Positions 2-15,078 of a DNA stretch of 16,985 nucleotides are shown here, piece by piece (the stretch's first letter is position 1; every line of letters begins with the position of its first letter). Under the pieces are notes generated by a model. It was not told where the DNA came from. It made no database searches and worked only from the letters and a program-made list of their open reading frames with translations. This DNA comes from Candidatus Rifleibacteriota bacterium (GTDB lineage Bacteria; Muiribacteriota; Ozemobacteria; Ozemobacterales; Ozemobacteraceae): positions 1 to 16,985 of the forward strand of contig JBNJGH010000074.1 of assembly GCA_051747585.1 (NCBI GenBank), in the 5' to 3' direction. A program made the position numbers and the translations under genes.

Positions 2-1039
2 ACCGTTACCATGAACCTTCAACCAGAAGCCTTGCCTTCAGTCATGTCGAGAATCAAGATTCTCAGCGGCATGGATATTTCCGAGCGCCGTATTCCACAA
101 GATGGTCGTATTCAGATGGTAATTATGGATAAACCAATTGATTTTCGTGTCAATACGATTCCTACAGCCTGGGGAGAAAAAGCCTGTCTTCGTATCCTCG
201 ATAAGTCAAACGTTAATGTAGCGCTTGATATGATGGGCTTTACCCCGCAAAACTTTACCATGTTGAAAAGAGCTATTGGTTCGCCAAATGGCATGTGTCT
301 GGTTACCGGTCCGACCGGTTCAGGCAAAACCACAACCTTGTATTCCTGTTTGAGTGCAATAAAAGGGCCTGGACTCAACATTTGTACAGTTGAAAACCCG
401 GTAGAATATAAGTTGAAATTTATCAATCAGGTTCAGGTTCGGCCTGAAATAGACTTGAAGTTTGCCACAGTCTTAAGAGCTTTTCTCCGCCAGGATCCAG
501 ATGTTATTATGTTAGGTGAGATTCGTGACGAAGAAACAGCAAGTATCGCGGTTGAAGCCGCTTTAACCGGCCATCTTGTTTTTGCGACTCTACATACCAA
601 TGATGCGCCGAGTACTGCGATCAGGCTGGTTGATATGGGAGTCGAGCCTTTCCTGGTTTCTTCGGCCCTTCTCTGCATTGTTTCACAGAGACTTGCTCGA
701 AGAATCTGCAAATCATGCAAAGATGTTGACACAACGGTAACAGCAGAAACAATTGCAGACATGGGTCTTCCTCCCGAAGCTATAAATGAAACTTATTATC
801 GGGGAAAAGGCTGCGACAAATGCGGTAAAACCGGCTACAAAGGAAGAGTTGGGGTTCATGAGATCATGTATACCCACGAAAATTTGAGGCGCATGATTAT
901 TCAAAAAGTATCACCCGATGATCTTAAAGCAGAAGCCATAAACCTGGGAATGAAAACGCTGAGAGAAGACATTGTCATCAAATTTCAACAAGGCCTGACC
1001 ACACCGGAAGAGGTTTTTGCCCTTGCCAGGTCCGATTGA
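2..1039 (+). CDS. pilB: Type IV pilus/T2SS assembly ATPase, GspE/PilB family (5'-truncated by window edge)
   Basis: Frame is open from the window start (ACC GTT ACC ATG), so the ATG at 11 is probably internal. Motifs: MDISERRIPQDGR, Walker A GPTGSGKTTT, Asp box TVENPVEY, Walker B region LRQDPDVIMLGEIRD, His box TGHLVFATLHTN, tetracysteine CKSC...CDKC, GYKGRVGVHE. Confidence 0.96.
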   Translation, partial: TVTMNLQPEALPSVMSRIKILSGMDISERRIPQDGRIQMVIMDKPIDFRVNTIPTAWGEKACLRILDKSNVNVALDMMGFTPQNFTMLKRAIGSPNGMCLVTGPTGSGKTTTLYSCLSAIKGPGLNICTVENPVEYKLKFINQVQVRPEIDLKFATVLRAFLRQDPDVIMLGEIRDEETASIAVEAALTGHLVFATLHTNDAPSTAIRLVDMGVEPFLVSSALLCIVSQRLARRICKSCKDVDTTVTAETIADMGLPPEAINETYYRGKGCDKCGKTGYKGRVGVHEIMYTHENLRRMIIQKVSPDDLKAEAINLGMKTLREDIVIKFQQGLTTPEEVFALARSD

Positions 1040-1065: not shown

Positions 1066-2265
1066 ATGCCAAAATATGATTGTGAAGTAAAAGATTCGAA
1101 GGGTGACATTATAAAAACTACTCTTGAAGCTCCAAATATGCAGGAGCTGGCTAACCGACTTTCAGATAAAGGTTATTACCTGGTCAAAGCCAAGGAAGCA
1201 AAAGCCAAAGGCGGGTTCAGCTTTGGCGGCGGAGTATCCAAAAAAGAAATGATGGTCTTTACAGTGCAGCTGTCAACTCTTGTAGGCGCTGCCGTCCCGC
1301 TGGTCGAAGCAATAGGAATCCTGGCAGACCAGACGCAAAATCAATATTTTAAAAACATTCTCGAGCAAATCAACAAAGACCTTAATTCAGGGCAATCTTT
1401 TTCAGTTTCAATCAGAAGACACCCGAAAGTTTTCGATAAAATTTACTGCAATATGTGCGAAGCCGGTGAAGCCGGTGGTATGCTCGACCAGGTTCTTGAT
1501 CGTCTTGCAGCTTTTGCCGAAGCCGATGCTGAAATCAGAGGAAAAATCAAAGGCGCATTGACTATGCCGGTTGTTCAGCTGGTACTTGCCGGTGGTGGTG
1601 TAATATTTCTGCTGGTCAAGATTTTTCCAAACTTTTCCAAGCTTTTCAAAAAAATGAAGGTGGATCTTCCAAAAATTACTGAAATCATGATGTTTGCCTC
1701 TGATGCACTTTTGCACAATTATATTATGATAGGCGGGGGCGCTATTGGTATTGTAATTGGTATAATTTTATTTATGAAAACCAATTTCGGCCAGCGTATG
1801 GTCTCAAAAATTTCAATTGTTGCCCCTGTACTTGGTCCTCTTACCCAGAAAATTGCAGTCAGCCGATTTGCCCGAACCTTCTGTTCATTGCTTGCTGCCG
1901 GCGTTCCAATTATGCAGGCGCTTCAAATAACTGCCTCGGTTATGGGCAACCCTATAATGGAAGAAATGATTGGAGGCATGGCTGTTGGGATACAACAGGG
2001 TAATACTCTTGCAAGCACCTTAACAAAAGTTACAATTTTCCCACCAATGGTTAAAAAGATGATAGAAGTTGGAGAAAACACCGGGAACCTCGATGTAATG
2101 TTAAGCAAAGCAGCCGACTTTTACGACCGCGAAGTCAAAGAAGCCCTCGATGGCTTAACCTCGGCCCTCACGCCTATTCTCACAGTTGTTATGGGTATTG
2201 TTATCGGCACCATCGCCCTGTCAGTTTTCATGCCCCTCTTCAAAATGACCTCGAGCATGAAATAA
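1066..2265 (+). CDS. pilC: Type IV pilus/T2SS inner-membrane platform protein, GspF/PilC family
   Basis: 399 aa. Two T2SSF-type repeats (QLSTLVGAAVPL...AGEAGGMLDQVL; FARTFCSLLAAGVPI...VGENTGNLDVML), three hydrophobic segments, C-terminal VFMPLF; directly after pilB. Confidence 0.96.
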   Translation: MPKYDCEVKDSKGDIIKTTLEAPNMQELANRLSDKGYYLVKAKEAKAKGGFSFGGGVSKKEMMVFTVQLSTLVGAAVPLVEAIGILADQTQNQYFKNILEQINKDLNSGQSFSVSIRRHPKVFDKIYCNMCEAGEAGGMLDQVLDRLAAFAEADAEIRGKIKGALTMPVVQLVLAGGGVIFLLVKIFPNFSKLFKKMKVDLPKITEIMMFASDALLHNYIMIGGGAIGIVIGIILFMKTNFGQRMVSKISIVAPVLGPLTQKIAVSRFARTFCSLLAAGVPIMQALQITASVMGNPIMEEMIGGMAVGIQQGNTLASTLTKVTIFPPMVKKMIEVGENTGNLDVMLSKAADFYDREVKEALDGLTSALTPILTVVMGIVIGTIALSVFMPLFKMTSSMK

Positions 2266-2266
2266 G

Positions 2267-2890
2267 ATGCCCACTAGTAAAGACAAAACAATTTATGCCA
2301 ATAAATATCTTCATTACCAGGAAAACAGAGGAATTTTAAGAAAAATTGTTAGACAGTTTTATCTTAATAAAATAGCCAGCTACTGCCTGGGAAATTCAGT
2401 AGACATTGGCTGCGGGAATGGCACTTTGTTGCAAATACTGGATAAAAACTCAGTTGGTTTTGAAGTAAACAAAGAAGCGGTTGAATTTTGTCGAAGAAAA
2501 AAATTGATAGTATTTGAAATACCCGAAAAGAATCCCTGGAAAACTATCAGAAATCATCTACCACGAAATTGCCAGACAATTATTATGAATCATGTGCTCG
2601 AGCACATAGAAAACCCGGCAATTTATTTCAACCAGCTATTGAGCTTTGCTGTTAACGAAGGTATAAAAAGAATTGTTCTTGTTTCCCCCGGGAAAAAAGG
2701 CTTTTTAAGCGATAAAACCCATATATCGTTTATCACCTCCAACTGGTTCAAGAAACATAAGTTTATTGAACGATATTCACTTAAAATAGTTAAAAACCTT
2801 TTTTTCCCAGTTAACAGCTACAAGTTTGGCCAGCTGTTTACTCATAATGAATGGCATCTTGTGGCAGATTTGCCAATTCAAAAAAGATAA
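2267..2890 (+). CDS. Class I SAM-dependent methyltransferase (glycan-locus type)
   Basis: Motif I VDIGCGNG, acidic motif II VGFE, NHVLEH and DKTH segments typical of Methyltransf_11/23 enzymes in polysaccharide loci. Confidence 0.88.
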   Translation: MPTSKDKTIYANKYLHYQENRGILRKIVRQFYLNKIASYCLGNSVDIGCGNGTLLQILDKNSVGFEVNKEAVEFCRRKKLIVFEIPEKNPWKTIRNHLPRNCQTIIMNHVLEHIENPAIYFNQLLSFAVNEGIKRIVLVSPGKKGFLSDKTHISFITSNWFKKHKFIERYSLKIVKNLFFPVNSYKFGQLFTHNEWHLVADLPIQKR

Positions 2891-3900
2891 TGCCCATTGC
2901 ATCGATAATAATACTTAACTGGAACGGCTTACAACATCTTCACGATCTTCTCACAAGCCTTAAAAATCAGTCTTTCAAAGATTATGAATGTATAGTAGTT
3001 GATAACGGTTCTAAAGATGGTTCCCGGGAATTTATCCAACAAAATTTTCCCTGGGTCAAGCTTATAAGCTTGCAAAAAAACACTGGATTCGCTACAGGCA
3101 ATAACATTGGCTTTAAGCATTCAACCGGAAAATATATAATAACCTTGAATAATGATACCTTGTTAGACTGGTCATGGCTCGAACAATTGGTTAAAACGGC
3201 AGAAAAAGACTCAAAAATTGGTATGGTTGCCAGTAGAATCTGCTCTTATTACGACCATGACAAAATAGATTCACTTGGTATGAAGATTTGTATTGACGGA
3301 ATGTCTCGGGGAGCTTTCCGCAACAGAGATTTTTCGTCTATAAAGAATATTCCCGATGAAATACTTTTACCCTCTGCCTGCGCAGCTCTATACAAAAGAG
3401 CGATGCTGGAACAAATCGGCTTTTTTGATGATTGTTTTTTTGCTTACTGCGAAGATACCGATCTGGGACTAAGGGCCAGAAAATCTGGCTGGAAAGCTGC
3501 TCTGGCAGCAAATGCAATTGTTTATCATAAATACTCATCAACTTCAGGGGCATTTTCTCCTTTTAAACTCTATCTGGTCGAAAGAAACCATTTCTGGCAG
3601 GCATGCAAAAATCTTCCGCTTATCTTTTTATTAACTTTACCAATCACCAGTCTTATGCGCTACTGCATGCAGTTACTGTTTTATTTAAAATTATTTAAAA
3701 ACGAAAATCCGTGCATCAAAAATAATTCATCAACTTTCATAAATATGTTGTTAAAAGGCGTCTGGCACGGCATTTGTGGTGCTTTGCCCAGATTGAAAGA
3801 CAGACTTGAAACATATTTATCAGAAAATATGAAACAGAAAAATATTTCCAGGCTGCTAAAAAAATATCATTTATCCTTTTATGATTTGTTGAAGGATTAA
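2890..3900 (+). CDS. Glycosyltransferase family 2 (GT-A, rhamnosyltransferase-like/WbbL-like subgroup)
   Basis: SIIILNWNG, VVDNGSKDGS, NTGFATGNN, LNNDT, FFAYCEDTDLGLRA, VYH. Start placed at ATG 2890, which overlaps the upstream TAA (TAATG), rather than 2851. Confidence 0.93.
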   Translation: MPIASIIILNWNGLQHLHDLLTSLKNQSFKDYECIVVDNGSKDGSREFIQQNFPWVKLISLQKNTGFATGNNIGFKHSTGKYIITLNNDTLLDWSWLEQLVKTAEKDSKIGMVASRICSYYDHDKIDSLGMKICIDGMSRGAFRNRDFSSIKNIPDEILLPSACAALYKRAMLEQIGFFDDCFFAYCEDTDLGLRARKSGWKAALAANAIVYHKYSSTSGAFSPFKLYLVERNHFWQACKNLPLIFLLTLPITSLMRYCMQLLFYLKLFKNENPCIKNNSSTFINMLLKGVWHGICGALPRLKDRLETYLSENMKQKNISRLLKKYHLSFYDLLKD

Positions 3901-3901
3901 C

Positions 3902-4642
3902 ATGAAAATGACTCAAAAAACCTGTCTGATAATTCCCTGTCATAATGAAGAGAAAAATCTGCCTCTTTTGTTCACTGAGATTGCAAAACTCGAAGATGAA
4001 ACTCTTATTCCGCTTGTTATCGATGATTGCTCGGTAGATAACAGCGCCAAGATGGCCATACGGAACAATGACGTTATTGTCTTACAGCTACCGGTTAATC
4101 TGGGGGTAGGAGGAGCCGTGCAAACCGGTTTAATATTCGCTCTAGAAAACAATATGAATTATGCAATCAAACTGGATGGAGATGGGCAGCATCCTCCAGA
4201 CCAGATTGAAAAGTTGTTAAATGCCCTTAACCAGAATGAAGCAGATATAATTGTGGGTTCCAGGTTTTTGCAAAATGAAGAAAAGGGTTTTAAATCTACT
4301 TTCACCAGACGCATGGGAATAAGCTTTCTCCAAAAGGTCTGTAAATTGTTAACCGGACAACAGATAACAGACCCAACCTCGGGTTTTCGAGCCTATAACC
4401 GTAAAGCTATAGAATTCATGGCCGAACACTATCCTTCTTTTGATTATCCGGAACCTGAAGAAATAATTCTGGCAGTTAAAAACAACTTGAGAATTAAAGA
4501 AGTTCCGGTCATAATGAGAGAACGGCAACATGGGAAATCCAGTATATCTGCTGGCAATTCCATTTATTATATGATTAAAGTTACCCTGGCAATGTTTTTT
4601 ACAGCCATCAGAAAAAAAGAAAAGTTTTTGAAGCAACAATAA
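3902..4642 (+). CDS. GT2 polyprenol-monophosphate glycosyltransferase (DPM1/GacI/PpgS-like)
   Basis: IIPCHNEE, VIDDCSVD, NLGVGGAVQTG, DGDGQH, IVGSRF, DPTSGFRAY, YPEPE, EVPVIMRERQHGKS; immediately followed by a DUF2304-like gene, the usual pairing. Confidence 0.92.
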   Translation: MKMTQKTCLIIPCHNEEKNLPLLFTEIAKLEDETLIPLVIDDCSVDNSAKMAIRNNDVIVLQLPVNLGVGGAVQTGLIFALENNMNYAIKLDGDGQHPPDQIEKLLNALNQNEADIIVGSRFLQNEEKGFKSTFTRRMGISFLQKVCKLLTGQQITDPTSGFRAYNRKAIEFMAEHYPSFDYPEPEEIILAVKNNLRIKEVPVIMRERQHGKSSISAGNSIYYMIKVTLAMFFTAIRKKEKFLKQQ

Positions 4643-4643
4643 G

Positions 4644-5021
4644 GTGCTAATGCAACTCGAAAGAATACAAATCATATCTCTTATCAGCAGCGTATTGTTT
4701 CTGATATTTATTTTCGAACTAATACGAAGAAAAAAAATCAAAGAAGCCTATGCAATATTGTGGTTGATATTCGGTTTTATTTTTATTTTTTTCTCGATCT
4801 GGAAACAAGGCCTTGATTACATAAGCGAACTTGTGGGCATCTATTATCCACCAGCTTTTTTATTTTTACTTCTTATTATTGCCATTATCCTTATTTTAAT
4901 TCAGTTTTCAATAGTTATATCTAAACAAAGTGACATCTTAAAAAAACTAACCCAGGAAATAGCTCTAATAAAAACAACAAAAGATAATTGCAAAAATGAC
5001 AGACACACCCACCGAGAATAA
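4644..5021 (+). CDS. DUF2304-family small membrane protein (GacJ/Rv3632-like partner of polyprenol-P glycosyltransferase)
   Basis: About 125 aa, three TM helices, LIRRKKIKEAYAILW, ISELVGIYYPP, C-terminal IS...KLTQEIAL. Start is GTG 4644 or ATG 4650. Confidence 0.88.
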   Translation: MLMQLERIQIISLISSVLFLIFIFELIRRKKIKEAYAILWLIFGFIFIFFSIWKQGLDYISELVGIYYPPAFLFLLLIIAIILILIQFSIVISKQSDILKKLTQEIALIKTTKDNCKNDRHTHRE

Positions 5022-6438
5022 TCATTTAATATCAACAAATTCAGTTATAAAACTTATTTATTGTACTATTTTCTTTTCTTTGCTAAATAAGGGTTTATTG
5101 CTCTATAGAAATCCTATTTTGTTTCAAAGTTTTTATCTCTTAATACATGGTCTTATCGCCGATCTAACCATTCCCGCATGCATAGTTGCTCTTGTAATCT
5201 ATTTTAACAATGAAGCTTTCAATAAATTTTCCGCTATTTTTATTACAATTTTTAATATTGTAATACTGCTTGATTATTTACATTTTTTTAAATACGACTT
5301 CAGACTGAATATTGAATTGTTATATTTGAAAACATGGCTAAGCTTTATTCATATGTCCCGCCTTGCATTTGCAACTATTTTAATATTGAACCTGGCCATT
5401 TTTTATCTATTAAAATCAAAGACAAACAAAAAAGTAATTATTTCCTCTCAACAAAAAAAGACCTGGCTTGCATTAGCCACAATCCTGATAATTATCCAGA
5501 GCCTTACACTTAAAGCCAACCTTTATCAGTTTTCAAGCTGGAATAAATATTATTCAAGTAAAAAGGCTATCTCCCAGACTGTTCCTGCAGTCTCCAGCTT
5601 CAAGAGCTTATTTTCAAAAACTATTATGGATTTCTTTCCAGAAGAATTGGATATTTTTATTGCAAGCCCATTCTATACAAAATTCCAAAAAGAATTCATC
5701 CAGAGAACCCATGACAAAGCTTTTTCAAAAACACCTTTGGAAGAAAACAAAATCTGGTCCCACCGTGGATTCCATAAAAATGCTCCCCAGAATTCACCAG
5801 AAGCGGTTAAATTATCACTTCAAAACGGAATAAAAGGTTTTGAAATAGATATTCGATATGTTTATGGCGCAAACAAAATCGTCATTTCACACGATCCATT
5901 CCCGCCGGCTATATTAGCAAAAAAACAAGATATTTTTTCTTTTTTTGATCAAATTAAATCTGATTTGCATTCGGCTGAATATATCTGGCTGGATTTCAAA
6001 AATTTGTATTTTACAAACATTGAAAATTCGATAAAAATCCTCAAAAAACTGGCCCTTAAATATAAAATTGATCAGAAACTCTTAATTGAATCAACCAACC
6101 CTTTTTTACTTAGAAAATTCGCAAATGCCGGCTTTAAAACTATTTTAGCCATAGCTTATGGGCAACATAACTTTAAATTTACCGGTCCTGCTACATCAAT
6201 GATGCGCTCTTCAACAATTTTAAGCAGATGTGAGTTTGTTACATTGCCATGGCAAACTATGAATTATAAAAGCACCTGGGAAGCACTTAACGGATTCCCG
6301 GTCGGTTGTTATACTGTCAACGATTCAAATATAATCAAGTTTCTGGTCAAAAGAAAGTCTGTTTTTGCAATTTTGACTGACCTTGAAATTAACCCTGTTA
6401 GCTTATTAAAAAATGATTCAAAAATTAAAAAACATTAA
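4996..6438 (+). CDS. Membrane protein with about 5 N-terminal TM helices and a C-terminal glycerophosphodiester phosphodiesterase (GDPD)-like domain
   Basis: WSHRG (HRG at 5761), PQNS, GFEIDI (5842), VISHD, WLDFK, YTVND, ILTD, in GDPD TIM-barrel order. Hydrophobic N-terminal ~170 aa. Confidence 0.8.
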   Translation: MTDTPTENNHLISTNSVIKLIYCTIFFSLLNKGLLLYRNPILFQSFYLLIHGLIADLTIPACIVALVIYFNNEAFNKFSAIFITIFNIVILLDYLHFFKYDFRLNIELLYLKTWLSFIHMSRLAFATILILNLAIFYLLKSKTNKKVIISSQQKKTWLALATILIIIQSLTLKANLYQFSSWNKYYSSKKAISQTVPAVSSFKSLFSKTIMDFFPEELDIFIASPFYTKFQKEFIQRTHDKAFSKTPLEENKIWSHRGFHKNAPQNSPEAVKLSLQNGIKGFEIDIRYVYGANKIVISHDPFPPAILAKKQDIFSFFDQIKSDLHSAEYIWLDFKNLYFTNIENSIKILKKLALKYKIDQKLLIESTNPFLLRKFANAGFKTILAIAYGQHNFKFTGPATSMMRSSTILSRCEFVTLPWQTMNYKSTWEALNGFPVGCYTVNDSNIIKFLVKRKSVFAILTDLEINPVSLLKNDSKIKKH

Positions 6439-8221
6439 TCCACTTCACGCATCCATTACACTGTTTTTTTTAATCTTATTATCTAATCATGTTTACATAC
6501 AAATCAAAACCCAGCTGCCAGTTAATGTCTTTGTTCTGAAAGCACATTTAACCGGTTTGGTTAATGAGCTTTTTCTACCAACTTTAATTGTCGTTTTGTT
6601 TTTGAAATTACCGTTACGAAATAGAACCCGCCTGACGTCGCTGACAATATTTTTTCAATTTATTGCTTTAATGCCCCTGTTAGATATTTTATATTTTCAA
6701 GCTACTCTTCATAGATTCAACTGGAAAATCTGGCACGATGTAAATTTTTATTCCATTAAAGCGTTTTTTGGCTATAAAGAGCTTCTTTTTCTCAGTTTTT
6801 GGGCATTAATTTATATTCTGGTTTTTCTAAAATTAAAAAAATCACCTGCAAACAAATTTAAAACAATAAAAATTGATTCAATAGCACCTAAGTTCCTTGT
6901 TTTGTTAATATTAATTTATCTTTTTGTGCCTTTTGAATTGTATAAAATCAATAGTAAATTTGACAACGTTGCTTGCCCAATTAGAGGAAAAAATAATTTT
7001 CTGAAAATAATCAACAATGGATTTCTAAACAATTTTTTAGAATTTCCTAAAACAATAGCAAAAAATACAACTAAAAATTTACAATATACAAAATCTGAGA
7101 CTGCTTTCCTTATAAAAAATGGTTTTATAGCACCATCAATAAAAAAAATAAATTTTAAAGCAAAAAATTATAATAAGATTATCTTCGTTGTTTTTGAATC
7201 TCTGGCTGCAGATTATTTACATAGTTACAATCCAAACATCCCCTCCGAGGCTACTCCTTTTTTCGACAGCCTTATAAGTAACTACACTGATGTTCCACAA
7301 TTTTATGCTTCAGACTGCCCAACTATAAACGGTCTCAATGCCATGCTTCTTTCAAGAATACCATTCGACCCTGACTTCTCAATGATCAGCAATCACATCA
7401 GTCTTGCAAAGCTTTTAAAAAAATATCAGGGGTTTGACTCGGTTTTTTTACGTGGTGTAAGCAAATTTTACAGTGGCGAAAATATTTTAATTAAATCACT
7501 TTTTTCTTTTGACAAACTAATTTGTTTTGAGGAATTAAAGAAAAAATACCCCGAACCTCCCTTTCGCGATTGGGGCTTTCACGACGATACCATCTTTAAA
7601 GAAGCTATTGATATTCTTGAAAAGCATAAAAATAAAAAGCTATTTTTACTGCTCAAAACCATTGATCTACATCAACCGCCTCATTATTGCGGCCTTCCTG
7701 ATTCGAAATTACCATTAAAAGTTAGAAACCATCCAAGCCCGATAATTAAAAGCCTTTACTGGGCCGACTATAGCTTAAAAAGCTTTTTTAAAACTCTCGA
7801 AGACAAGAAACTGTTTGATAATAAAACACTCATTATAATTACATCTGATCATTATGCTTTTCCCGGCTATGGGCACAGCGAACTGGTAAACAAGCCCGTT
7901 TTTTCTCAAATCGATAAAATTCCACTTATTTTTGTCGATAAAAAGCAAAACTTCCGGAACCTAATGTCGACCAACAAAAAATTCTGCCAAATTGATCTAG
8001 CTCCCACAATTTGTCACCTGCTTGGCTTGCCTGTTCCAGATTCTTTTATCGGACAAAGCATGTTAAATCCAAATGCTCGCAGTCGAATTCTCGGTATTGA
8101 CAATGACAAAATAATTTTAAGAAACGAAAAAAAAGAATATTCATTGGAATTGAATGAGAAAAGAACCAACCAGGCCATAGAAAAATGGCTTAACAATTTG
8201 ACAGCATTAGCCGGAAAATAA
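6413..8221 (+). CDS. LTA synthase/OpgB/GacH-family phosphoglycerol transferase (sulfatase/alkaline phosphatase superfamily)
   Basis: About 5 TM helices, then IIFVVFESL (E262), PTING (T304, putative nucleophile), WGFHD, TIDLHQP (H420), ITSDH (D479/H480), QIDLAPTI. Spacing matches S. aureus LtaS E255/T300/H416/D475/H476. Confidence 0.88.
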   Translation: MIQKLKNINPLHASITLFFLILLSNHVYIQIKTQLPVNVFVLKAHLTGLVNELFLPTLIVVLFLKLPLRNRTRLTSLTIFFQFIALMPLLDILYFQATLHRFNWKIWHDVNFYSIKAFFGYKELLFLSFWALIYILVFLKLKKSPANKFKTIKIDSIAPKFLVLLILIYLFVPFELYKINSKFDNVACPIRGKNNFLKIINNGFLNNFLEFPKTIAKNTTKNLQYTKSETAFLIKNGFIAPSIKKINFKAKNYNKIIFVVFESLAADYLHSYNPNIPSEATPFFDSLISNYTDVPQFYASDCPTINGLNAMLLSRIPFDPDFSMISNHISLAKLLKKYQGFDSVFLRGVSKFYSGENILIKSLFSFDKLICFEELKKKYPEPPFRDWGFHDDTIFKEAIDILEKHKNKKLFLLLKTIDLHQPPHYCGLPDSKLPLKVRNHPSPIIKSLYWADYSLKSFFKTLEDKKLFDNKTLIIITSDHYAFPGYGHSELVNKPVFSQIDKIPLIFVDKKQNFRNLMSTNKKFCQIDLAPTICHLLGLPVPDSFIGQSMLNPNARSRILGIDNDKIILRNEKKEYSLELNEKRTNQAIEKWLNNLTALAGK

Positions 8222-8239
8222 TCGCAAATACAGTATCCG

Positions 8240-10495
8240 TTAGTTGTCGACAGTAAAATTGTTGACTAATTCAAGCTTCTTTCCCTCTAAAACATCTTTA
8301 TTTTTAATTTGTATTTTGGCTTTAATAAGCTCGCCCGCCTTCGTAAATGCCACTTTGTAGTGATCGGAAGTTTTGATTCTACCGGAATGGTATGCATTGG
8401 AATAAGGAACTCTGATAGAAAATTGTCCATCAGCGTCGGCTTGAACTCTACGCTTGTATAACTGCTCGACTTTATCAAATTTGCATTGCAAAGATAAAAC
8501 TACCTCTGTATAAGGGTCTACTTTACCGGTAATTTCACAGCCTGACACAAACTCATAAATCAAAATATCAGGAGGCGCAAACCTGTTTAACTGCGATGAA
8601 GAAAAAACAATTCTAAAATGAGAAGTCGGTTTTTTGAATTCTCCTGCAGTTTTTATTGCAACCTGCCCACTTAACCAGTGATGGAAGCTATCTATGTAAA
8701 GATGATTTTCATTCTTTTGTGCTTTTTTACCATAAGCATAACTGAATCGGTCGACAGGGCTGCCAGGCAGATTTTTATATATATGCATCATGTCGATAGC
8801 TTTATCATCAATAGTTCTATCTCGAATATATACATATCTAACCTTATATTTTTCACAAAATTTAACCGCTTCATTTTCATTTTCTGCCGAAAAAATTTGC
8901 GCCATTTTCTTGTAGCCTCTTAACGTGTTCCCAACCAGAACCGGACGCCTTGCATAGTAAGAAATTGCATTTCCTTCATCCCAGTAGCACAAAATCCCAT
9001 ACTCGGGTTTCTCAGTATCTTTATACCCTGAAGTTTCGGGAGTATTTTTTCTTATCCAGTTAAAGGACTCAATTTTGTTTTTTGATATAAACCTGTTGTT
9101 GTTAAAAAATATCGCAAAGCTTAAGATAAAAAATATAATCATATAAGGCAAAGAAGCAGCTATAACTTTTACGACTTTATTATTTTTTAGTTTTCCTCTG
9201 CTTAATTTAATTTTGTCTATTACATAAATAACGACCAAATAAATAGCACAACCGTTAAATAAAACTGGAAGAGCTCCAAACCAACGAATAAACCTCACCG
9301 AAAACATTGCCAGCAAACTGATAATAATAAACCAGTCTAAAATTACTTTGCCCCCGCCGTTAAATAACTTACCCGGATTTAAAATAAATATTAAAGGAAA
9401 AAGAAGAAGCCCGGGTCCCATGAATACAAAAGTTTTGAAGAATTCCAACGGTTTAATAAAAATCTGATCTGGTTTAAAAGCCGGGCGAAGCTCACTTATA
9501 GTAGACATCATTGGTTCATTGGCCGTTAGAAAACTGAACCCATAAAGAATCTGGTCGCCAAAAAGCAACCACATTGCAAAACCAGTAGCAACAGCTATAA
9601 AAATCATTAGCAAACTAAGTTTTTTAAAGCCAATTCGTCGGACCGAGTTAAGATAATCGACTAATTTAAAAAATATTCCGGCAATAAAAACAGTAGAAAC
9701 ATGAAAAAAATTAAAACCCTCTATTTCAAAAAGAATTTCATTTTTGGGAAGCGTAAGTATCACTGCCAAAATTGAGCCAATTACCAAAGAGGCTGAAATA
9801 TATTCATTGTAAGCTTGAGAGATTTTGCTTCTGGAAAAAATTAGATAGAGACCATAAATAGAAGCAAACAAATAAAATAACGGTGCTCCCTGCCAGGTCG
9901 ACAAAAACAGCATGGTAACCAGACCTGAAGCTATTACCAACCATACTTTTCTGGTATGACAAAAAACTGCCGCCAAAACCAGCCATAACTGGATAAAAAA
10001 TGCATTTAGAAAATGATAATCAATAACTAAATAATCAAAAACCATCAATGAATAATAGCCAGGTGCGGCCGCAAAGGCTACTGCAAGACATAAACCAGGT
10101 GAGCCGGTTTGATACCAGCAAAAGATGACCATGATTAAACTACAAAGCCAACCGACAACCGGCGGAATCCAACCTATAATATAATCAGTATCAATGGTGG
10201 ACTCTGGAAAAAAATAAAAATAAAGATCCGTAACCCCAAGTAAAAATTTCAAATGGAAAGGCGGGAAATCATTTTTTAATTCCGAAGGGAAACAACTATA
10301 AGTATCTTTTTCTATAAGCTCACCCTGAAGAAGCGATTGCTCATGATAACGTAAAAAAAGCACTGAGTCAGGGTCTTGAACATGGAGCTTTCCGATCCAT
10401 GGATACGCCTCAAAAATACCGCTGAAAAACATGAACAAATTTACTAGAAGAACCAAAAATACTGGCAAGATGTATATTTTACTTTTTTTTTTCAT
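8240..10495 (-). CDS. STT3-family oligosaccharyltransferase (AglB-like)
   Basis: 751 aa, about 13 TM helices plus soluble C-domain. DPD in first loop, DYH, TISE (TIXE motif), VRF, WIRKNTPET, YGILCYWDEGN (WWDxG variant), YYARRPV, KYKVRYVY; C-terminal beta-rich tail YKRRVQADADGQFSIRVPYS. Confidence 0.88.
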   Translation of the reverse strand: MKKKSKIYILPVFLVLLVNLFMFFSGIFEAYPWIGKLHVQDPDSVLFLRYHEQSLLQGELIEKDTYSCFPSELKNDFPPFHLKFLLGVTDLYFYFFPESTIDTDYIIGWIPPVVGWLCSLIMVIFCWYQTGSPGLCLAVAFAAAPGYYSLMVFDYLVIDYHFLNAFFIQLWLVLAAVFCHTRKVWLVIASGLVTMLFLSTWQGAPLFYLFASIYGLYLIFSRSKISQAYNEYISASLVIGSILAVILTLPKNEILFEIEGFNFFHVSTVFIAGIFFKLVDYLNSVRRIGFKKLSLLMIFIAVATGFAMWLLFGDQILYGFSFLTANEPMMSTISELRPAFKPDQIFIKPLEFFKTFVFMGPGLLLFPLIFILNPGKLFNGGGKVILDWFIIISLLAMFSVRFIRWFGALPVLFNGCAIYLVVIYVIDKIKLSRGKLKNNKVVKVIAASLPYMIIFFILSFAIFFNNNRFISKNKIESFNWIRKNTPETSGYKDTEKPEYGILCYWDEGNAISYYARRPVLVGNTLRGYKKMAQIFSAENENEAVKFCEKYKVRYVYIRDRTIDDKAIDMMHIYKNLPGSPVDRFSYAYGKKAQKNENHLYIDSFHHWLSGQVAIKTAGEFKKPTSHFRIVFSSSQLNRFAPPDILIYEFVSGCEITGKVDPYTEVVLSLQCKFDKVEQLYKRRVQADADGQFSIRVPYSNAYHSGRIKTSDHYKVAFTKAGELIKAKIQIKNKDVLEGKKLELVNNFTVDN

Positions 10496-10527
10496 GGCTT
10501 TATTTTAAAATATTTGAAATTTAACCG

Positions 10528-10538
10528 ACTATAGCACA
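10528..10538 (-). promoter_or_regulatory. Candidate extended -10 promoter for the OST gene
   Basis: Minus strand reads TGTGcTATAGT, about 32 nt upstream of the ATG at 10495. A second TATAAT lies at 10553-10548 (minus). No good -35. Confidence 0.4.
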
Positions 10539-10577
10539 TAATATACGATTATAAAATTAAAATTGTTCGATTTAGTC

Positions 10578-10606
10578 TTGACACTGTCGATATCTGTACC
10601 TATATT
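10578..10606 (+). promoter_or_regulatory. Near-consensus sigma70 promoter of the pilin gene
   Basis: TTGACA (10578-10583), 17 bp spacer, TATATT (10601-10606); followed by SD AGGGAG (10623-10628) 8 nt before ATG 10637. Confidence 0.8.
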
Positions 10607-10636
10607 GCATGCAAGTCGAACAAGGGAGTGGATTTT

Positions 10637-11218
10637 ATGTTTAACTTAAAAAAATCTGGTTTTACCCTGATGGAAATCATGGTAGTTATCATTGTTATTG
10701 CGGTTCTGGCTTCAGTTGCCGGACCTATGATCGGTTCCATAACAGATCAAGGTAGAGCTTCTGCGACAAAATCAAAGATAAGTTCTTTAAAAAGTGCCCT
10801 CATGGCCTACAAAGCAGACGTTGGCCGTTATCCTTTTGCGGGGCCACCTAAGTGTGCAAGAAATGCCCAAGCTTACAACGATGCCTCAGACCGGCTTCTT
10901 GGCTGCTTTGAAGACACTAACATTTTAGTTAACGCAAATCTTGGCGCTGATGGCATGAGTGAAGATTTTGACATTACTAACTACACCAGAAAATGGAAAG
11001 GGCCTTATATGCAATCCGCGCCCGATGATTTTATGATGGATGCCTGGGGAAATAAAATACGCTATTCTGCCGTTGATAAAAGTGTTTACCTGCAATCAAT
11101 GGGAGCAGACATGATAGAAGAATCAATTCCTAACATGCTCGATGATGATTATGTAGAAGATATGGCAGCCGATGATATTCTTATAAGTGTGTTTCGCACA
11201 AGAGCAGCTTTTAAATAA
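10637..11218 (+). CDS. Type IV prepilin, GspG-like (pseudo)pilin; probable major subunit
   Basis: Class III signal KKSG|FTLMEIMVVIIVIAVLASVAGP with E5; YKADVGRYP, KWKGPY, DAWG, SMGAD...DDI typical of GspG. ATG 10637 preferred over GTG 10628 from SD spacing. Confidence 0.92.
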   Translation: MFNLKKSGFTLMEIMVVIIVIAVLASVAGPMIGSITDQGRASATKSKISSLKSALMAYKADVGRYPFAGPPKCARNAQAYNDASDRLLGCFEDTNILVNANLGADGMSEDFDITNYTRKWKGPYMQSAPDDFMMDAWGNKIRYSAVDKSVYLQSMGADMIEESIPNMLDDDYVEDMAADDILISVFRTRAAFK

Positions 11219-11238
11219 AATCAACATTATTTGACTTT

Positions 11239-11280
11239 AAAAAACAGGGATGTATTTATTTATACATCCTGTTTTTTTTT
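11239..11280 (+). terminator. Rho-independent terminator after the pilin (potentially bidirectional)
   Basis: AAAAAACAGGGATGTAT-loop-ATACATCCTG-T9: long stem with one bulged G, T-run on the + strand and A-run upstream. Confidence 0.85.
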
Positions 11281-11308
11281 AGAAAATGTATAGATAGAAA
11301 AGAAGTAT

Positions 11309-13180
11309 ATGGCTGAAGAAAAATTTGAAAATTTTGTCGCCGTTGACGTTGGCTCTTTCTCATTAAAGTTTGCTTATTGCGAAAAAACGGACGACGAAAA
11401 TTTCCTCTTAAAAACTCTTGCTCAGATGCCAATACCATCCTACGAGCATGAGCTGAGCGAAGATGATCTCGAAACGATGAGCAAAGACGATGTTAAAGAG
11501 CATTGTCTTAAAGAACTTCGCCAGTTTTTAACTACCCATTTAACAGAACTTCTTTATGACAACGAAATTCAGACCAAAAAGTCTATAACTTTTGCATCAA
11601 ACCGTGAGGTAACAATCAGATGCATAGAAATCCCTCCGGTTCCCGAAAAAGAGAAATTAACAGAAGCCGTAAATGCAGAAGCTAACAAGCAAATGCCCTT
11701 TTCGATGGGTAATGCAGTGCTTGGCTACCATGTTCAGGGAGACATAGTTAAAGAAGAAAAAGCACTTACTCAAATAATGGTTGCCGCCCTGCAAAAAGAT
11801 ATTATTGACTATATCGCTCAAAACCTAAAAGGTGGCGGCTTGAACAATGACGGAATTCTTACCCTGCCCCAATCTTTAGAGATTGCCCTAAAGCCTCAGA
11901 TGGAAGCCTATGCAGAGGGCGACAAAAAACTCGGCATCATTCACTGCGGAAATTCTACCACCTCGATCATGATTTATAAAAACAACAAGATTCAGTTTTT
12001 CCGCGACGTAAATATGGCCGGTTTTACAATAACCGAGGCAATATATAAGGGAGGAGAATTCGAAGAAAAAGAATACAGCTTCGAAAACATTAACGAAGCA
12101 GTAGAGCTGAAACATAAGCTTGGTGTTTTACCACCCGATGAAATAAATGAATTAAAAGGGGTAGACAAATTTGCCGCCACAAAAATATTTGAAACAGTCG
12201 AAAAAATATTTCAGCATATACAGCTGTCGATAAGCTTTTATGTATCCCAGACCGGAGAAGCGGGCCTCGATAAAATAATACTCACCGGTGGCTCTGCCGG
12301 CATGAATAATTTCAAGGAATTTATCGAAGAAAGCCTTGAGGTTCCAACAGAGTTAGGGGATCCTTTCCGAGCTCTTGAAATTGGAGAAATTAAATACGAA
12401 GAAGAAAAACGAAAAATAGATGGACCCGGACTGGCACCGATAATAGGTGTTGCACAGTACAGGGGCGAAGAAGAAATTATTAATTTTATAGATATCCTTT
12501 TTCCCAATCGCAAAAATCAAAATATTAACCTTTCAGGCGTCAGTTCAAAATTTGGAGGAGGCTTAAAAGGTAAGTTCAGTAATATTTTCCATCTTACCGA
12601 AACAAAACTTAGAATCATAGCAGTTTTACTTGGAATACTCGTTTTAAGCATTGGGCTTTACCCGGTTATCAATATACGAAAACAGGTTTCAGATTCGAAA
12701 AAAAAATTCATTCAAATGAGAAGAAAATTGAGTAATTTGCAAAATTCACAAAGAGAAGTTGCCGAATTATTGAAAGAGCAAAAGTCCCTTGAAAAATACT
12801 CAACCTTCTCCGATGGTCTGGAAAAATATAATATAAATAACTCGACTCTAGTTTTGGAAATAGCAAGCCTCACTCCCAAGGAAATTTTCCTCACAGCAGC
12901 AGAATTCAATATGAATGCCAATCCACCCTCCTTTAAATTTCTGGGACATGCCGATAATTCTGACAGTGTTTTTGAATATTTGAGTATTCTAGGAAAATCT
13001 GATTTTTTTCAAAACCCGCTGCTTGAAAACACCCAGGAAGTACCTATAGATGAAGACCGATATTTTATCAGATTTGTAATTGGTGGTAAAATCAACAAAG
13101 GTGCTTTAAAAAGAGACCCACTGGCAAAAAAAGAAGAAAAAGATCAAGAAGAAGCTCTTGACGACTTTTTTATAGACTGA
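11309..13180 (+). CDS. PilM-PilN fusion (actin-like cytoplasmic domain + TM + coiled coil + PilN periplasmic domain)
   Basis: N-terminal VAVDVGSFSLK, EANKQMPF, IQLSISFY, IILTGGSAG, VPTELGDPF (PilM). Then IINF/NINLS, one TM (IIAVLLGILVLSIGLYPVI), coiled coil, and EIASLTPKEIFLT...GHA...VFEYLSILGKSDFF (PilN). Single uninterrupted frame. Confidence 0.85.
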   Translation: MAEEKFENFVAVDVGSFSLKFAYCEKTDDENFLLKTLAQMPIPSYEHELSEDDLETMSKDDVKEHCLKELRQFLTTHLTELLYDNEIQTKKSITFASNREVTIRCIEIPPVPEKEKLTEAVNAEANKQMPFSMGNAVLGYHVQGDIVKEEKALTQIMVAALQKDIIDYIAQNLKGGGLNNDGILTLPQSLEIALKPQMEAYAEGDKKLGIIHCGNSTTSIMIYKNNKIQFFRDVNMAGFTITEAIYKGGEFEEKEYSFENINEAVELKHKLGVLPPDEINELKGVDKFAATKIFETVEKIFQHIQLSISFYVSQTGEAGLDKIILTGGSAGMNNFKEFIEESLEVPTELGDPFRALEIGEIKYEEEKRKIDGPGLAPIIGVAQYRGEEEIINFIDILFPNRKNQNINLSGVSSKFGGGLKGKFSNIFHLTETKLRIIAVLLGILVLSIGLYPVINIRKQVSDSKKKFIQMRRKLSNLQNSQREVAELLKEQKSLEKYSTFSDGLEKYNINNSTLVLEIASLTPKEIFLTAAEFNMNANPPSFKFLGHADNSDSVFEYLSILGKSDFFQNPLLENTQEVPIDEDRYFIRFVIGGKINKGALKRDPLAKKEEKDQEEALDDFFID

Positions 13181-13188
13181 GCAGAAAT

Positions 13189-13782
13189 ATGGCAGAAAAA
13201 GTAAATATAACTGAATGGCTGGCTAAAGCCAAAGAAGACCCAAAACTTGCTGCCCAGCCTCTGATTATAATTGGCGGGCTATTTTTTGCCGGCTACAAAG
13301 TGCTTTATTCACCACAAACAGTTGAGCTATTCAGACAGGAAAGAAGAACAAAAAAAGTTGTTGGTGATGTTCAACGACTAGAGTCAGCGGTTCAAAACGT
13401 CGAAGATATCAAGCTGGATATTCAGGAACAAAAAGAAGCCTGGGAAAAAGCACAGAAAAGATGCTACAAAAAGTCTGAAATGACAAAATTTTTGCGGCGT
13501 ATCCGAGAGCTTGCAAAATTGGCCGGGGTTCCCATAAAAAGTGTCAATCCCCGAGATTTATCAAAAACAAAAGTGGGGGAAATTTCCGTGGAAGAATTGC
13601 CGGTTTCTATTTTTTTTACCGGAGACCTGGTAAAGCTTGGAACTTTTCTCAGATTAATTGAAAAAGAAGACAAAATTACTTACCTCAAACTTCCTAATCT
13701 TATGCCAAATGCAAGCGGAACTTTTGAAGTAGAATTGGAACCAACAACAATACTGATACCCGACGAACTGGTGAACCCCTGA
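13189..13782 (+). CDS. pilO: PilO/GspM-like alignment protein
   Basis: N-terminal TM, coiled coil, EMTKFLRRIRELAKLAGVPIKSVNP, ELPVSIFFTGDLVKLGTFLRLIE (PilO ferredoxin-like core); position after pilMN. Confidence 0.82.
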   Translation: MAEKVNITEWLAKAKEDPKLAAQPLIIIGGLFFAGYKVLYSPQTVELFRQERRTKKVVGDVQRLESAVQNVEDIKLDIQEQKEAWEKAQKRCYKKSEMTKFLRRIRELAKLAGVPIKSVNPRDLSKTKVGEISVEELPVSIFFTGDLVKLGTFLRLIEKEDKITYLKLPNLMPNASGTFEVELEPTTILIPDELVNP

Positions 13783-14495
13783 TGAATGGCAAGCAGCTCT
13801 TTTGCCTCAGCCTTGTGATACTTTCCGTGGCCATGGGAATTCACTGGTTCAAGCATAAACCCAAAACTCGAAAAAGGCCGACCAGGCGCCCAAAAGTTGC
13901 GCTGGATATAAAAGATCTTCAAATTCAGGACGAAAACAAGCAGGGAAATGAAGAAGAAACCCCGGTTGAAGATCTTGGTGACGATAATCAAGAAGAACAA
14001 GAACAAGCTACCGAAACAGAAGAACTTCCTGACGAAACGCAGGAAACTTCTAAAGCAACCGATACCACTGAAATCGCAACAGCCTCAGATACCGAGGAAC
14101 TGCCATCCGAGCTCGACGACCCGATTATAGCTCAATTTCACAATATCAAACGAAATCCTTTTGAAAAATCACCCTATGCAGAACTGGTTGAAGAACTCAG
14201 AGCCCAGCAAGAACTCGAAAACCAGGTAGAAGAAGTAACAATAAAACCGATCGAGGTGATGAATGCTAATTTCAGCGCAACTATCAAAGCTCAAAACAAG
14301 CTGGTAGCCATAATCGACTCACGTCTTTACCGAGAAGGCGATCAATTTCAGCAAAAACCTATTACTAAAATTGAGCCTTCACTTGTAACTCTCGATACCA
14401 ATTCCACCCTTTTTCTTATACCCAAGGTTGGGGTTCAGGTTGATGTGGCAACTGACGGCACCTATACTTATCAGGATACTTTCAGAGAAAATTAA
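13782..14495 (+). CDS. PilP/GspC-like membrane-anchored periplasmic protein
   Basis: N-terminal hydrophobic anchor, basic then very acidic linker, RNPF motif, beta domain ...VAIIDSRLYREGD...ITKIEPSLVTL; between pilO and secretin; TGATG coupling with pilO. Confidence 0.65.
   Translation: MNGKQLFCLSLVILSVAMGIHWFKHKPKTRKRPTRRPKVALDIKDLQIQDENKQGNEEETPVEDLGDDNQEEQEQATETEELPDETQETSKATDTTEIATASDTEELPSELDDPIIAQFHNIKRNPFEKSPYAELVEELRAQQELENQVEEVTIKPIEVMNANFSATIKAQNKLVAIIDSRLYREGDQFQQKPITKIEPSLVTLDTNSTLFLIPKVGVQVDVATDGTYTYQDTFREN
14007..14111 (+). repeat. Intragenic peptide repeat in the acidic linker
   Basis: ATETEELPDE (14007-14036) and ASDTEELPSE (14082-14111), with a degenerate ATDTTEI (14055) between them. 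Confidence 0.6.
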
Positions 14496-14531
14496 TTACA
14501 TTTTTACCCTTGTTATTCCGATAAAGAGAAC

Positions 14532-15020
14532 ATGAGCCTTTTAAAAAAAATAATTTTCTTTTTTATTCTTTTAACTACAGCAGTTTTTTCAAGCGGCTGT
14601 ATAGAAAAAACTCTTAACCCGGAAGCTGAACTCGAAATAACAAGTGTCGAGCCTCACGCACTTTATGTAACAGCCACAGATACCGCCAGTTTACCTACAA
14701 CTGACGTTACAGTTACCTCGATAAATACAATTCCCTGCAATTTAGAGAGTTGGTGGATTAATTATTACACCAGTAGCGATGAACCTATACCCAGCCTTAA
14801 AACTATTCCAACTTCCCTGGCAGGCAAGTTGGAGGCAGAAGGCACTCTAACAATTACAACAAGCCCTTATTCAACCAGAGTTGTTGATTTGTTTGAACTT
14901 TCAGGGTCAAATATTTCTCCAATTGTCGCCGAAATGAATTTCGTATTTAAAGATTATAACGGTAACCATATAAGCAAAACAGCAAGTTGCCTTTTATTTG
15001 AACCTGATCCTGCACAATAA
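14532..15020 (+). CDS. Lipoprotein of unknown function (candidate secretin pilotin/accessory)
   Basis: MSLLKK + hydrophobic stretch + FSSG-C (Cys23, codon 14598-14600); Ser/Thr-rich, beta-rich mature part; directly upstream of the secretin. Confidence 0.7.
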   Translation: MSLLKKIIFFFILLTTAVFSSGCIEKTLNPEAELEITSVEPHALYVTATDTASLPTTDVTVTSINTIPCNLESWWINYYTSSDEPIPSLKTIPTSLAGKLEAEGTLTITTSPYSTRVVDLFELSGSNISPIVAEMNFVFKDYNGNHISKTASCLLFEPDPAQ

Positions 15021-15078
15021 GCACAAACCTGCCGATATTAGATTCGGAAACAGAATACAGGAGAAAAATTTGATAAAA

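Follow-up and report, generated by a model that had tools for sequence, protein, structure and literature searches.

Does a bacterial type IV pilus locus that carries an archaeal-type oligosaccharyltransferase (OST) glycosylate its own pilin, and which residues would receive the glycan? The question is raised by a 16,985-nucleotide stretch of a Candidatus Rifleibacteriota genome (assembly GCA_051747585.1, contig JBNJGH010000074.1), referred to here as the window, which is the whole of that contig (C74) in a genome of 4.1 Mb that is 93.6% complete. A first-pass annotation, made from the DNA letters, had placed seven modification genes between pilC (1066-2265) and a pilin gene (10628-11218), with the OST gene divergent from the pilin gene, and had proposed that the locus N-glycosylates its pilin. 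The positions and strands of the seven open reading frames (ORFs) were confirmed, as was the divergent arrangement, with the OST gene on the minus strand. As for the proposal, the AglB-type enzyme and its linkage to the pilin held up on closer analysis, whereas the support drawn from the acceptor sequon did not. We propose that the locus is an island that glycosylates its GspG-like pilin, probably on Asn and under a relaxed rule that does not need Ser or Thr at the +2 position, and from the sequence comparisons below we give this an even chance. The central features are as follows.

8240-10495, minus strand: AglB-type (STT3/GT66) OST; catalytic D43, D159, H161, E335, and R401 intact; WWDYG motif altered to YWDEG (residues 504-508)
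10628-11218, plus strand: GspG-like type IV (pseudo)pilin and probable major subunit, with conserved N-terminus and core and hypervariable, Asn-rich loops
10979-10987, plus strand: N-Y-T (AAC TAC ACC; mature N107), the only N-x-S/T of the pilin; candidate acceptor, not conserved as a sequon

Family and Fold of the Oligosaccharyltransferase

The assignment of the window enzyme to STT3/AglB rather than to another GT-C glycosyltransferase was borne out by both profile and fold. The protein matches AglB_L1 (PF18079, E 2.7e-10), an AglB_core-like domain, and TIGR04154 (E 1e-45), the latter with 156 bits against a curated cut-off of 450 that is exceeded in none of the 87 genomes of the phylum; its Pfam STT3 score is below the cut-off for that family. 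It is the sole STT3 homologue found in the host genome, and no Pfam match to a Wzy_C or PMT_2 domain was found in it. A profile built from 23 relatives gave five matches in the PDB, all of them A. fulgidus AglB, with AglB-L matched over its full length (E 2e-29); PglB was not matched in the PDB by this profile. An AlphaFold2 model (predicted local distance difference test score 87.6) was searched with Foldseek and returned AglB-L (7E9S) at the top (E 1e-26, template modeling (TM) score 0.74), followed by eukaryotic STT3, DPY19, and PglB (E 1e-8, TM 0.46 for PglB), with ArnT, Emb, and Aft far lower. By sequence and predicted structure, the enzyme is an AglB-type OST that possesses the AglB_L1 peripheral domain and is closest to AglB-L.

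In a midpoint-rooted tree of 135 sequences (10 near-duplicates excluded, few named rows, PglB absent), the OSTs akin to that of the window group in a clade of their own (support 1.0), and no donor lineage is visible. An origin by transfer from Euryarchaeota was considered and could not be established from this tree. A scan of the sequence collection with the single OST as query retrieved no relative.

Linkage of the Oligosaccharyltransferase to the Pilin

Among the other genomes of the family, TIGR04154 detects an OST in 35 of 50, as compared with 0 of 36 from the phylum's other families. Related loci (numbered L below, with genomes numbered G) were picked by OST matches alone, and the DNA around the matches was taken from 35 genomes. 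A pilin ortholog lies within 2 kb of the OST in 33 of the 35 OST-bearing genomes; the adjacency seen in the window is shared by nearly all of the OST-bearing relatives examined. The two exceptions are G021, in which the contig ends at the OST, and G007, which showed a distant paralog only; in G042, scored as OST-negative, an OST begins at a contig end, divergent from the pilin. The genes typically run in the order pilB, pilC, cassette, OST (reversed), pilin, pilMN, O, P, lipoprotein, and secretin. The adjacency survives inversion of the block (G049, G051), relocation of pilB/pilC (G012), and co-orientation of OST and pilin (G022, G048), and in G010 the order is pilin-GT2-DUF2304-OST. Across these rearrangements the OST keeps with the pilin and not with pilC or pilMN. 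Because the genomes are kin and not independent, the rearrangements count for more than the tally of 33 in 35.

Absences are also informative. In G059, pilC, pilin, and pilMN are contiguous with nothing between them, cassette and OST both being missing; G019 has the pilin alone; and OST-less G017 (L087:4200-9212) has the same pilus locus with B12-radical-SAM, methyltransferase, radical-SAM (SAM, S-adenosylmethionine), and GT9 genes, a set that suggests a different modification route. A search of these three genomes (93-96% complete) with the OST profile found none. Judged from gene content, the OST-cassette module is dispensable. A pilin-linked glycosylation island is thus well supported as a prediction, because inversions leave the linkage in place, the content of the cassette varies, and one locus lacks the cassette together with the OST.

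Loci of other arrangement were also seen. In a pilB/pilT locus of G005 (L037:7046-14853), a tandem OST pair is divergent from another pilin; there and in G001 (L038), the tandem paralogs lack the WWD Asp and are flanked by pilB/pilT and a type IVa-like pilin, in the company of a large LtaS-like gene. Beyond the family the linkage was rare in the loci sampled: for two further clades of bacterial AglB-like proteins, of which one is Geobacteraceae-type, a pilin is nearby in 1 of 43 loci of at least 8 kb. This locus, on an unrelated metagenome contig (L206:5950-10090), has an AglB-like gene (WSDGH) after GT4 and other envelope genes, followed by two type IV pilins, one sequon-free and one with three sequons, and then PMT-like genes. 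The Geobacteraceae-type genes in L121-L124 (xWxLGA) are followed by a GT2 gene and lie near purine genes as well as cytochrome c maturation or multiheme genes, and not near pilins.

Catalytic Center and Ser/Thr Pocket

We aligned the window OST with 48 others (n = 49; two fragments shorter than 560 residues were excluded) and mapped motif positions onto AglB-L by profile sequence alignment. D43 is present in 46 of 46 aligned sequences, D159 in 49/49, His or Asp at position 161 in 46/49, E335 (TISE) in 49/49, and R401 in 48/49. By this alignment, the two DXD motifs, the TIXE Glu, and the donor-phosphate Arg are intact in the clade.

The pocket for the Ser/Thr at +2 is made up of two motifs, WWDYG and DK/MI (PMC8342417), and the roles of two WWDYG residues, the first Trp and the Asp, are taken from 10.64898/2026.09.03.749169. 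The first position of WWDYG is Trp in none of the 49 OSTs (Tyr in 25, Phe in 19), and the Asp is kept in 36 and lost in 13. In the DK/MI region of the same sequences, as placed by sequence alignment, we found no conserved Lys or Met. The window motif, YWDEG, retains W505, D506, and G508. For comparison, WWD is kept in 19 of 22 members of the tree clade that contains Methanocella-, Halobacteriota-, and Euryarchaeota-labelled proteins. Residues 532-535 were considered as the MI motif and dropped, as the profile alignment puts the motif further downstream.

The Pilin and Its Sequons

The pilin is GspG-like, with a WKGPY motif and a match to TIGR01710; its best fold matches, EpsG and PulG, are weak (E 2e-3 or weaker). 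Its partners are PilMNOP-like, and the filament could be a type IVa pilus or a secretion endopilus. In an alignment of 38 pilins (36 from OST loci, two partial or distant sequences having been dropped), the N-terminus is almost invariant and the loops are hypervariable; Ser, Thr, and Tyr make up 7.7, 6.9, and 3.7% of loop residues. Hypervariable loops, a promoter-like site before the gene, and a terminator-like hairpin after it make the protein likely to resemble a major exposed subunit. Scattered paralogs that retain its globular domain, but in which the prepilin signal is swapped for other membrane anchors or a signal peptide, occur in L091:8859-10594, L092:8922-9698, L093, L094, L095, L096, L097, L098, L099, and L100, and are possibly decoys or non-assembling copies.

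The first-pass annotation had singled out N-Y-T as the pilin's only N-x-S/T site, which it is. A single site is the chance level for this protein (0.91 expected from its own shuffles), and at least one N-x-S/T occurs in 13 of the 15 window proteins, cytoplasmic ones included. N107 lies at the end of the least confident loop of the pilin model, and the Asp of DITNYT is at -3, so the site is not of the Campylobacter D/E-x-N-x-S/T type. The view of the sequon as a conserved acceptor had to be abandoned: lack of conservation had been named beforehand as the result that would speak against it, and the sequon is found in only 8 of 35 pilins. In the N107 column of these 35 pilins, Asn is present in 20, Ser/Thr at +2 in 11, and both in 8 (Fisher p 0.28), the conserved residue being Y108. 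Past residue 30, the 36 linked pilins contain 45 N-x-S/T sites as compared with 62.1 expected from shuffles, and the loops of 27 non-redundant pilins contain 27 as compared with 32.0. Eight of the 36 linked pilins are sequon-free; as the partner copy of one of them does have a site, seven genomes remain in which sequon-free pilins accompany catalytically intact OSTs, and the pilin of OST-less G059 has two sequons. The three linked OSTs that lack the WWD Asp (G003, G013, and G024) pair with pilins of 0, 0, and 1 sequons. A covariation of this Asp with pilin sequons was examined and rejected: sequon-free pilins likewise accompany the Asp-bearing OSTs of G002, G009, G014, G044, and G053, and an Asp-sequon rule does not hold in general.

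Sequons in the pilus machinery, which the first-pass annotation had named as a possible further target, are no evidence of glycosylation, because four secretin sites (26-27/27) persist in OST-less G017 and a site is present in cytoplasmic PilB in 20 of 20. A proteome-wide signature was absent from the host genome as judged with a crude classifier of exported proteins (exported N-x-T ratio 0.98; 1065 N-x-S as compared with 1067 S-x-N). With sequons unenriched in the family and the machinery and proteome tests negative, the lone N-Y-T is not evidence, and N107 is a possible glycosylation site among others. Since the N-x-S/T signal is not conserved, the attachment rule may be unusual. On these alignments, the system is distinct from the archaeal model in that both enzyme and substrate are without the canonical +2 signature.

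The Predicted Glycan-Building Cassette

The remaining six modification genes are on the plus strand, the last of them convergent with the OST gene. Counts refer to the 33 linked loci, some of them truncated where a contig or the 20-kb stretch that was fetched ends.

2267-2890, plus strand: class I SAM methyltransferase, predicted to methylate the glycan (PF13489, E 7.5e-9; methyltransferase in 15/33 loci)
2851-3900, plus strand: soluble GT2, predicted extender of the lipid-linked sugar (PF00535, E 7.9e-28; GT2 types differ between relatives)
3902-4642, plus strand: polyprenol-phosphate glycosyltransferase (GacI/PpgS/AglJ-like GT2), predicted to make the undecaprenyl-phosphate sugar (best NCBIfam matches PpgS, E 6e-24, and AglJ, E 1.1e-23, both below cut-off; paired with DUF2304 in 18/33 loci)
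4644-5021, plus strand: DUF2304 protein (GacJ/Rv3632 family), predicted activator of the preceding GT2 (PF10066, E 7e-27)
4996-6438, plus strand: membrane protein with a C-terminal glycerophosphodiester phosphodiesterase (GDPD)-like domain (PF03009, E 5e-4, below cut-off; weak PDB GDPD matches; in 2/33 loci, both with an LtaS-like gene)
6413-8221, plus strand: LtaS/MdoB-like membrane phosphotransferase, predicted to attach a phosphoform such as glycerophosphate (sulfatase fold, E 1e-22; phosphoglycerol transferase I matches below cut-off; PDB 3LXQ, 2W8D; in 8/33 loci)

The cassette co-occurs with the OST across relatives and its content changes from locus to locus, with rmlA/rmlC, glf, or GT4 genes found in single related loci; a swappable cassette of this kind suggests that surfaces vary in a serotype-like way in this uncultured phylum. 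The commonest members in relatives are B12-dependent radical SAM genes (19/33; up to four per locus, as in L032, L034, L042, L105, L110, and others), which are absent from the window. The G+C content of the cassette and OST genes is 30-39%, whereas pilB and pilC are at 43-45% and the genome as a whole at 40.7%, which hints at exchange, though the pilMN value (38%) falls in the same range.

GacI makes GlcNAc-P-Und and is stimulated by its DUF2304 partner GacJ, and PpgS-Rv3632 behaves alike (10.1101/180810); euryarchaeal AglB uses a monophosphate lipid donor (PMC8342417). A monophosphate donor, predicted here from the PpgS/AglJ-like GT2 and DUF2304 pair, would fit an AglB-type enzyme. The cassette has no PglC-type phosphoglycosyl transferase, and three genes of the phosphoglycosyl transferase family lie elsewhere in the host genome. 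GacH reportedly modifies a glycan, and Neisseria PptB is said to provide a precedent for direct phosphoform modification of pilin; by analogy, the LtaS-like protein could act on the glycan or on the pilin itself. Phosphoglycerol is present on pilins (PMC4471445). The methylated, glycerophosphate-decorated glycan put forward in the first-pass annotation is a guess from gene families that are variable and not family-wide, and is plausible for this genome only.

Proposed Mechanism and Alternatives

For the donor, acceptor, linkage, and purpose of the system, we infer the following sequence. The GacI/GacJ-like pair would make an undecaprenyl-monophosphate sugar, the donor type of euryarchaeal AglB, which the soluble GT2 and the methyltransferase would extend and cap as a short glycan. 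Flipping might be carried out by the DUF2304 protein or by a protein encoded outside the cassette. In the periplasm, the intact metal/TIXE/Arg center would transfer the glycan to exposed loop residues of the membrane-anchored pilin, N107 being one candidate, and the LtaS-like enzyme would add a phosphoform to glycan or pilin. The likely purpose would be to hide a variable filament on the cell surface from, for example, phages, by analogy with P. aeruginosa, in which pilin glycosylation reportedly gives phage defence. A broader version, which in our estimate falls a little short of an even chance, is a family-wide bacterial pilin system with a new acceptor code, in which an archaeal-type AglB has abandoned the N-x-S/T rule and modifies Asn outside sequons (or hydroxyl residues) in a hypervariable pilin with a glycan that is swappable and monophosphate-derived.

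Several observations weigh against glycosylation of the pilin under a relaxed rule. The window OST retains W505-D506, the main Ser/Thr reader, and may therefore still read N-x-S/T; altered WWD motifs are frequent among bacterial AglB-like proteins in general; and C. jejuni PglB is inactivated by WWDYG changes, aromatic swaps of the first Trp not being among those in the available part of the report (PMC3527161). Fourteen of 50 OST ORFs are not beside a pilin ortholog, three of them lying by other pilin-like genes or a contig end. Two findings that favor the reading are weak or modest: the distances of OST and pilin covary once PilMN and secretin are controlled for (partial r 0.32, p 0.009, 23 genomes; OST-PilMN r 0.20), which could stem from shared rate effects, and the 50 residues ahead of WxGPY are richer in Asn in linked pilins (13.7%) than in unlinked paralogs (9.2%), among kin that are not independent. 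The pilin loops yielded no alternative acceptor motif, the enriched N-V-L and N-Y patterns being positions of the conserved core, and OST-less G017 and G019 likewise retain N87. No flippase was found in the cassette, and the 93.6% complete genome gave no GtrA and only weak Wzx matches. Finally, a crude screen finds 84 prepilin-like ORFs in the genome, which are other possible acceptors.

Some of these points would be at home with a strict archaeal-style N-x-S/T rule, in which the OST modifies N107 and the machinery sequons while relatives gain and lose sites. The retained W505-D506 and the Asp in 36 of 49 OSTs, the presence of at least one sequon in 28 of 36 linked pilins, the PilO N-A-S in 15 of 27, and the placement of N107 in a low-confidence and, by the model, probably flexible loop all agree with it. 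We nonetheless regard this as unlikely, given that sequons are at or below chance (45 versus 62 in globular domains, 27 versus 32 in loops), that Asn and Ser/Thr are not significantly associated at the N107 column, that seven genomes combine intact OSTs with sequon-free pilins, that the OST-less G059 pilin has two sites, that secretin sequons persist in OST-less G017, and that N-x-T is not in excess in exported proteins across the proteome. Given the altered +2 pocket and the missing sequons, the STT3-fold enzyme might have switched to O-linkage, transferring to Ser, Thr, or Tyr of the pilin loops in the manner of TfpW/TfpO. The loops contain these residues, and characterised bacterial pilin glycosylation is O-linked. 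Yet the acidic residues that engage the Asn amide are invariant in the OSTs, and we know of no O-linking STT3; we consider such a switch quite improbable.

The acceptor might also not be a pilin at all. The GacI/GacJ/GacH-like genes, with the OST as a GT-C enzyme, could act on a polymer of the envelope or on exported proteins other than the pilin, and their place in a pilus locus would then reflect co-regulation or a recombination hot spot. The GT2, DUF2304, and LtaS-like set does resemble a streptococcal side-chain module (10.1101/180810), some OST paralogs lie away from pilins, and pilins are near the AglB-like genes of the two other bacterial clades in only 1 of 43 loci. This is rather unlikely in view of the intact TIXE and both DXD motifs (peptide binding, amide activation), of a predicted fold that is that of AglB and not of ArnT, Emb, or Aft, and of an OST that, where loci are rearranged, stays with the pilin and leaves pilC or pilMN.

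In archaea, type IV filaments have been described as glycosylated by STT3-family enzymes. An AglB-based pilin island, if true, would join archaeal STT3 and bacterial pilin glycosylation, and would give protein glycosylation in bacteria a further route, with a monophosphate donor. If the pocket change reflects a relaxed rule, about 40 natural variants in the clade would test whether the +2 Ser/Thr serves catalysis or binding alone, and the OSTs of the clade would be glycoengineering candidates for sites that PglB cannot use. Searches of bioRxiv and of open papers in PMC brought up N-glycosylation of archaeal pilins, work on PglB, and O-linked systems, but among the entries listed no description of an AglB-pilin island in bacteria or of glycosylation in Riflebacteria.

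Comparison with Known Systems

With A. fulgidus AglB-L (PDB 3WAJ, 3WAK, 5GMY, 7E9S) and euryarchaeal AglB (TIGR04154), the window OST shares the full-length fold including the L1 peripheral domain, the DXD and TIXE motifs, the phosphate-binding Arg, and a predicted monophosphate donor from an AglJ-like GT2. It differs in its bacterial host, in (Y/F)WDxG for WWDYG, in having no conserved DK Lys, in its score of 156 against 450 bits, and in being tied to one pilin gene with no sequon enrichment in pilin or exported proteins. Campylobacter and Desulfovibrio PglB are likewise single-subunit STT3 enzymes in bacteria, but the window OST has no profile match and a much weaker fold match to them, and its cassette lacks their PglC-type enzyme. 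Unlike the window system, PglB is a general system with a diphosphate donor and needs Ser/Thr at +2; an MI-versus-DK split and relaxed -2 rules are known in the PglB family (PMC4894442).

The P. aeruginosa pilA-tfpO and pilA-tfpW islands and Neisseria PglL share with the window a dedicated transferase, dispensable for the pilus, beside a variable major pilin. TfpO, TfpW, and PglL are Wzy_C-type or other GT-C enzymes and are O-linking, whereas the window enzyme is STT3/AglB with a donor cassette of its own. The streptococcal GacI-GacJ-(GacK)-GacL-GacH module and mycobacterial PpgS-Rv3632 share the polyprenol-phosphate GT2 and DUF2304 pair and the LtaS-like phosphotransferase. In contrast to the Gac module, the window cassette has no Wzx flippase and its GT-C enzyme is an OST; the known modules act on wall polysaccharide.

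Flanking Features and Host Genome

The remaining features of the window frame the island and the pilin gene.

2-1039, plus strand: PilB/GspE assembly ATPase, 5' end beyond the contig (PF00437, E 1.8e-113)
1066-2265, plus strand: PilC/GspF platform protein, left border of the island (PF00482; the usual left neighbor of the cassette in relatives)
10578-10606, plus strand: near-consensus sigma-70-like promoter before the pilin gene (11/12 matches, the best site in 8000-11400; the total of 15 sites is not clearly above shuffles, 10.8 +/- 3.0)
11247-11270, plus strand: intrinsic-terminator-like hairpin after the pilin gene, read on both strands
11309-16985, plus strand: PilM-PilN fusion, PilO, PilP-position protein, lipoprotein, and secretin, forming the right border (an order shared by most relatives)

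PilM and PilN form a single fused ORF family-wide (11309-13180 in the window), with a weak match to the Akkermansia Amuc_1101 family. The type IV filament repertoire of the host genome (G000) appears unusually large from its gene content: the prepilin-like ORFs of the crude screen (about 84, a few of them false) are accompanied by about ten PilB/GspE-type ATPases and eight secretins. At G000:C3:73079-76591, a further pilin gene that contains four N-x-S/T sites is located immediately upstream of a 920-residue Wzy_C/O-antigen-ligase-like gene, forming a second pilin-transferase pair in the host genome.

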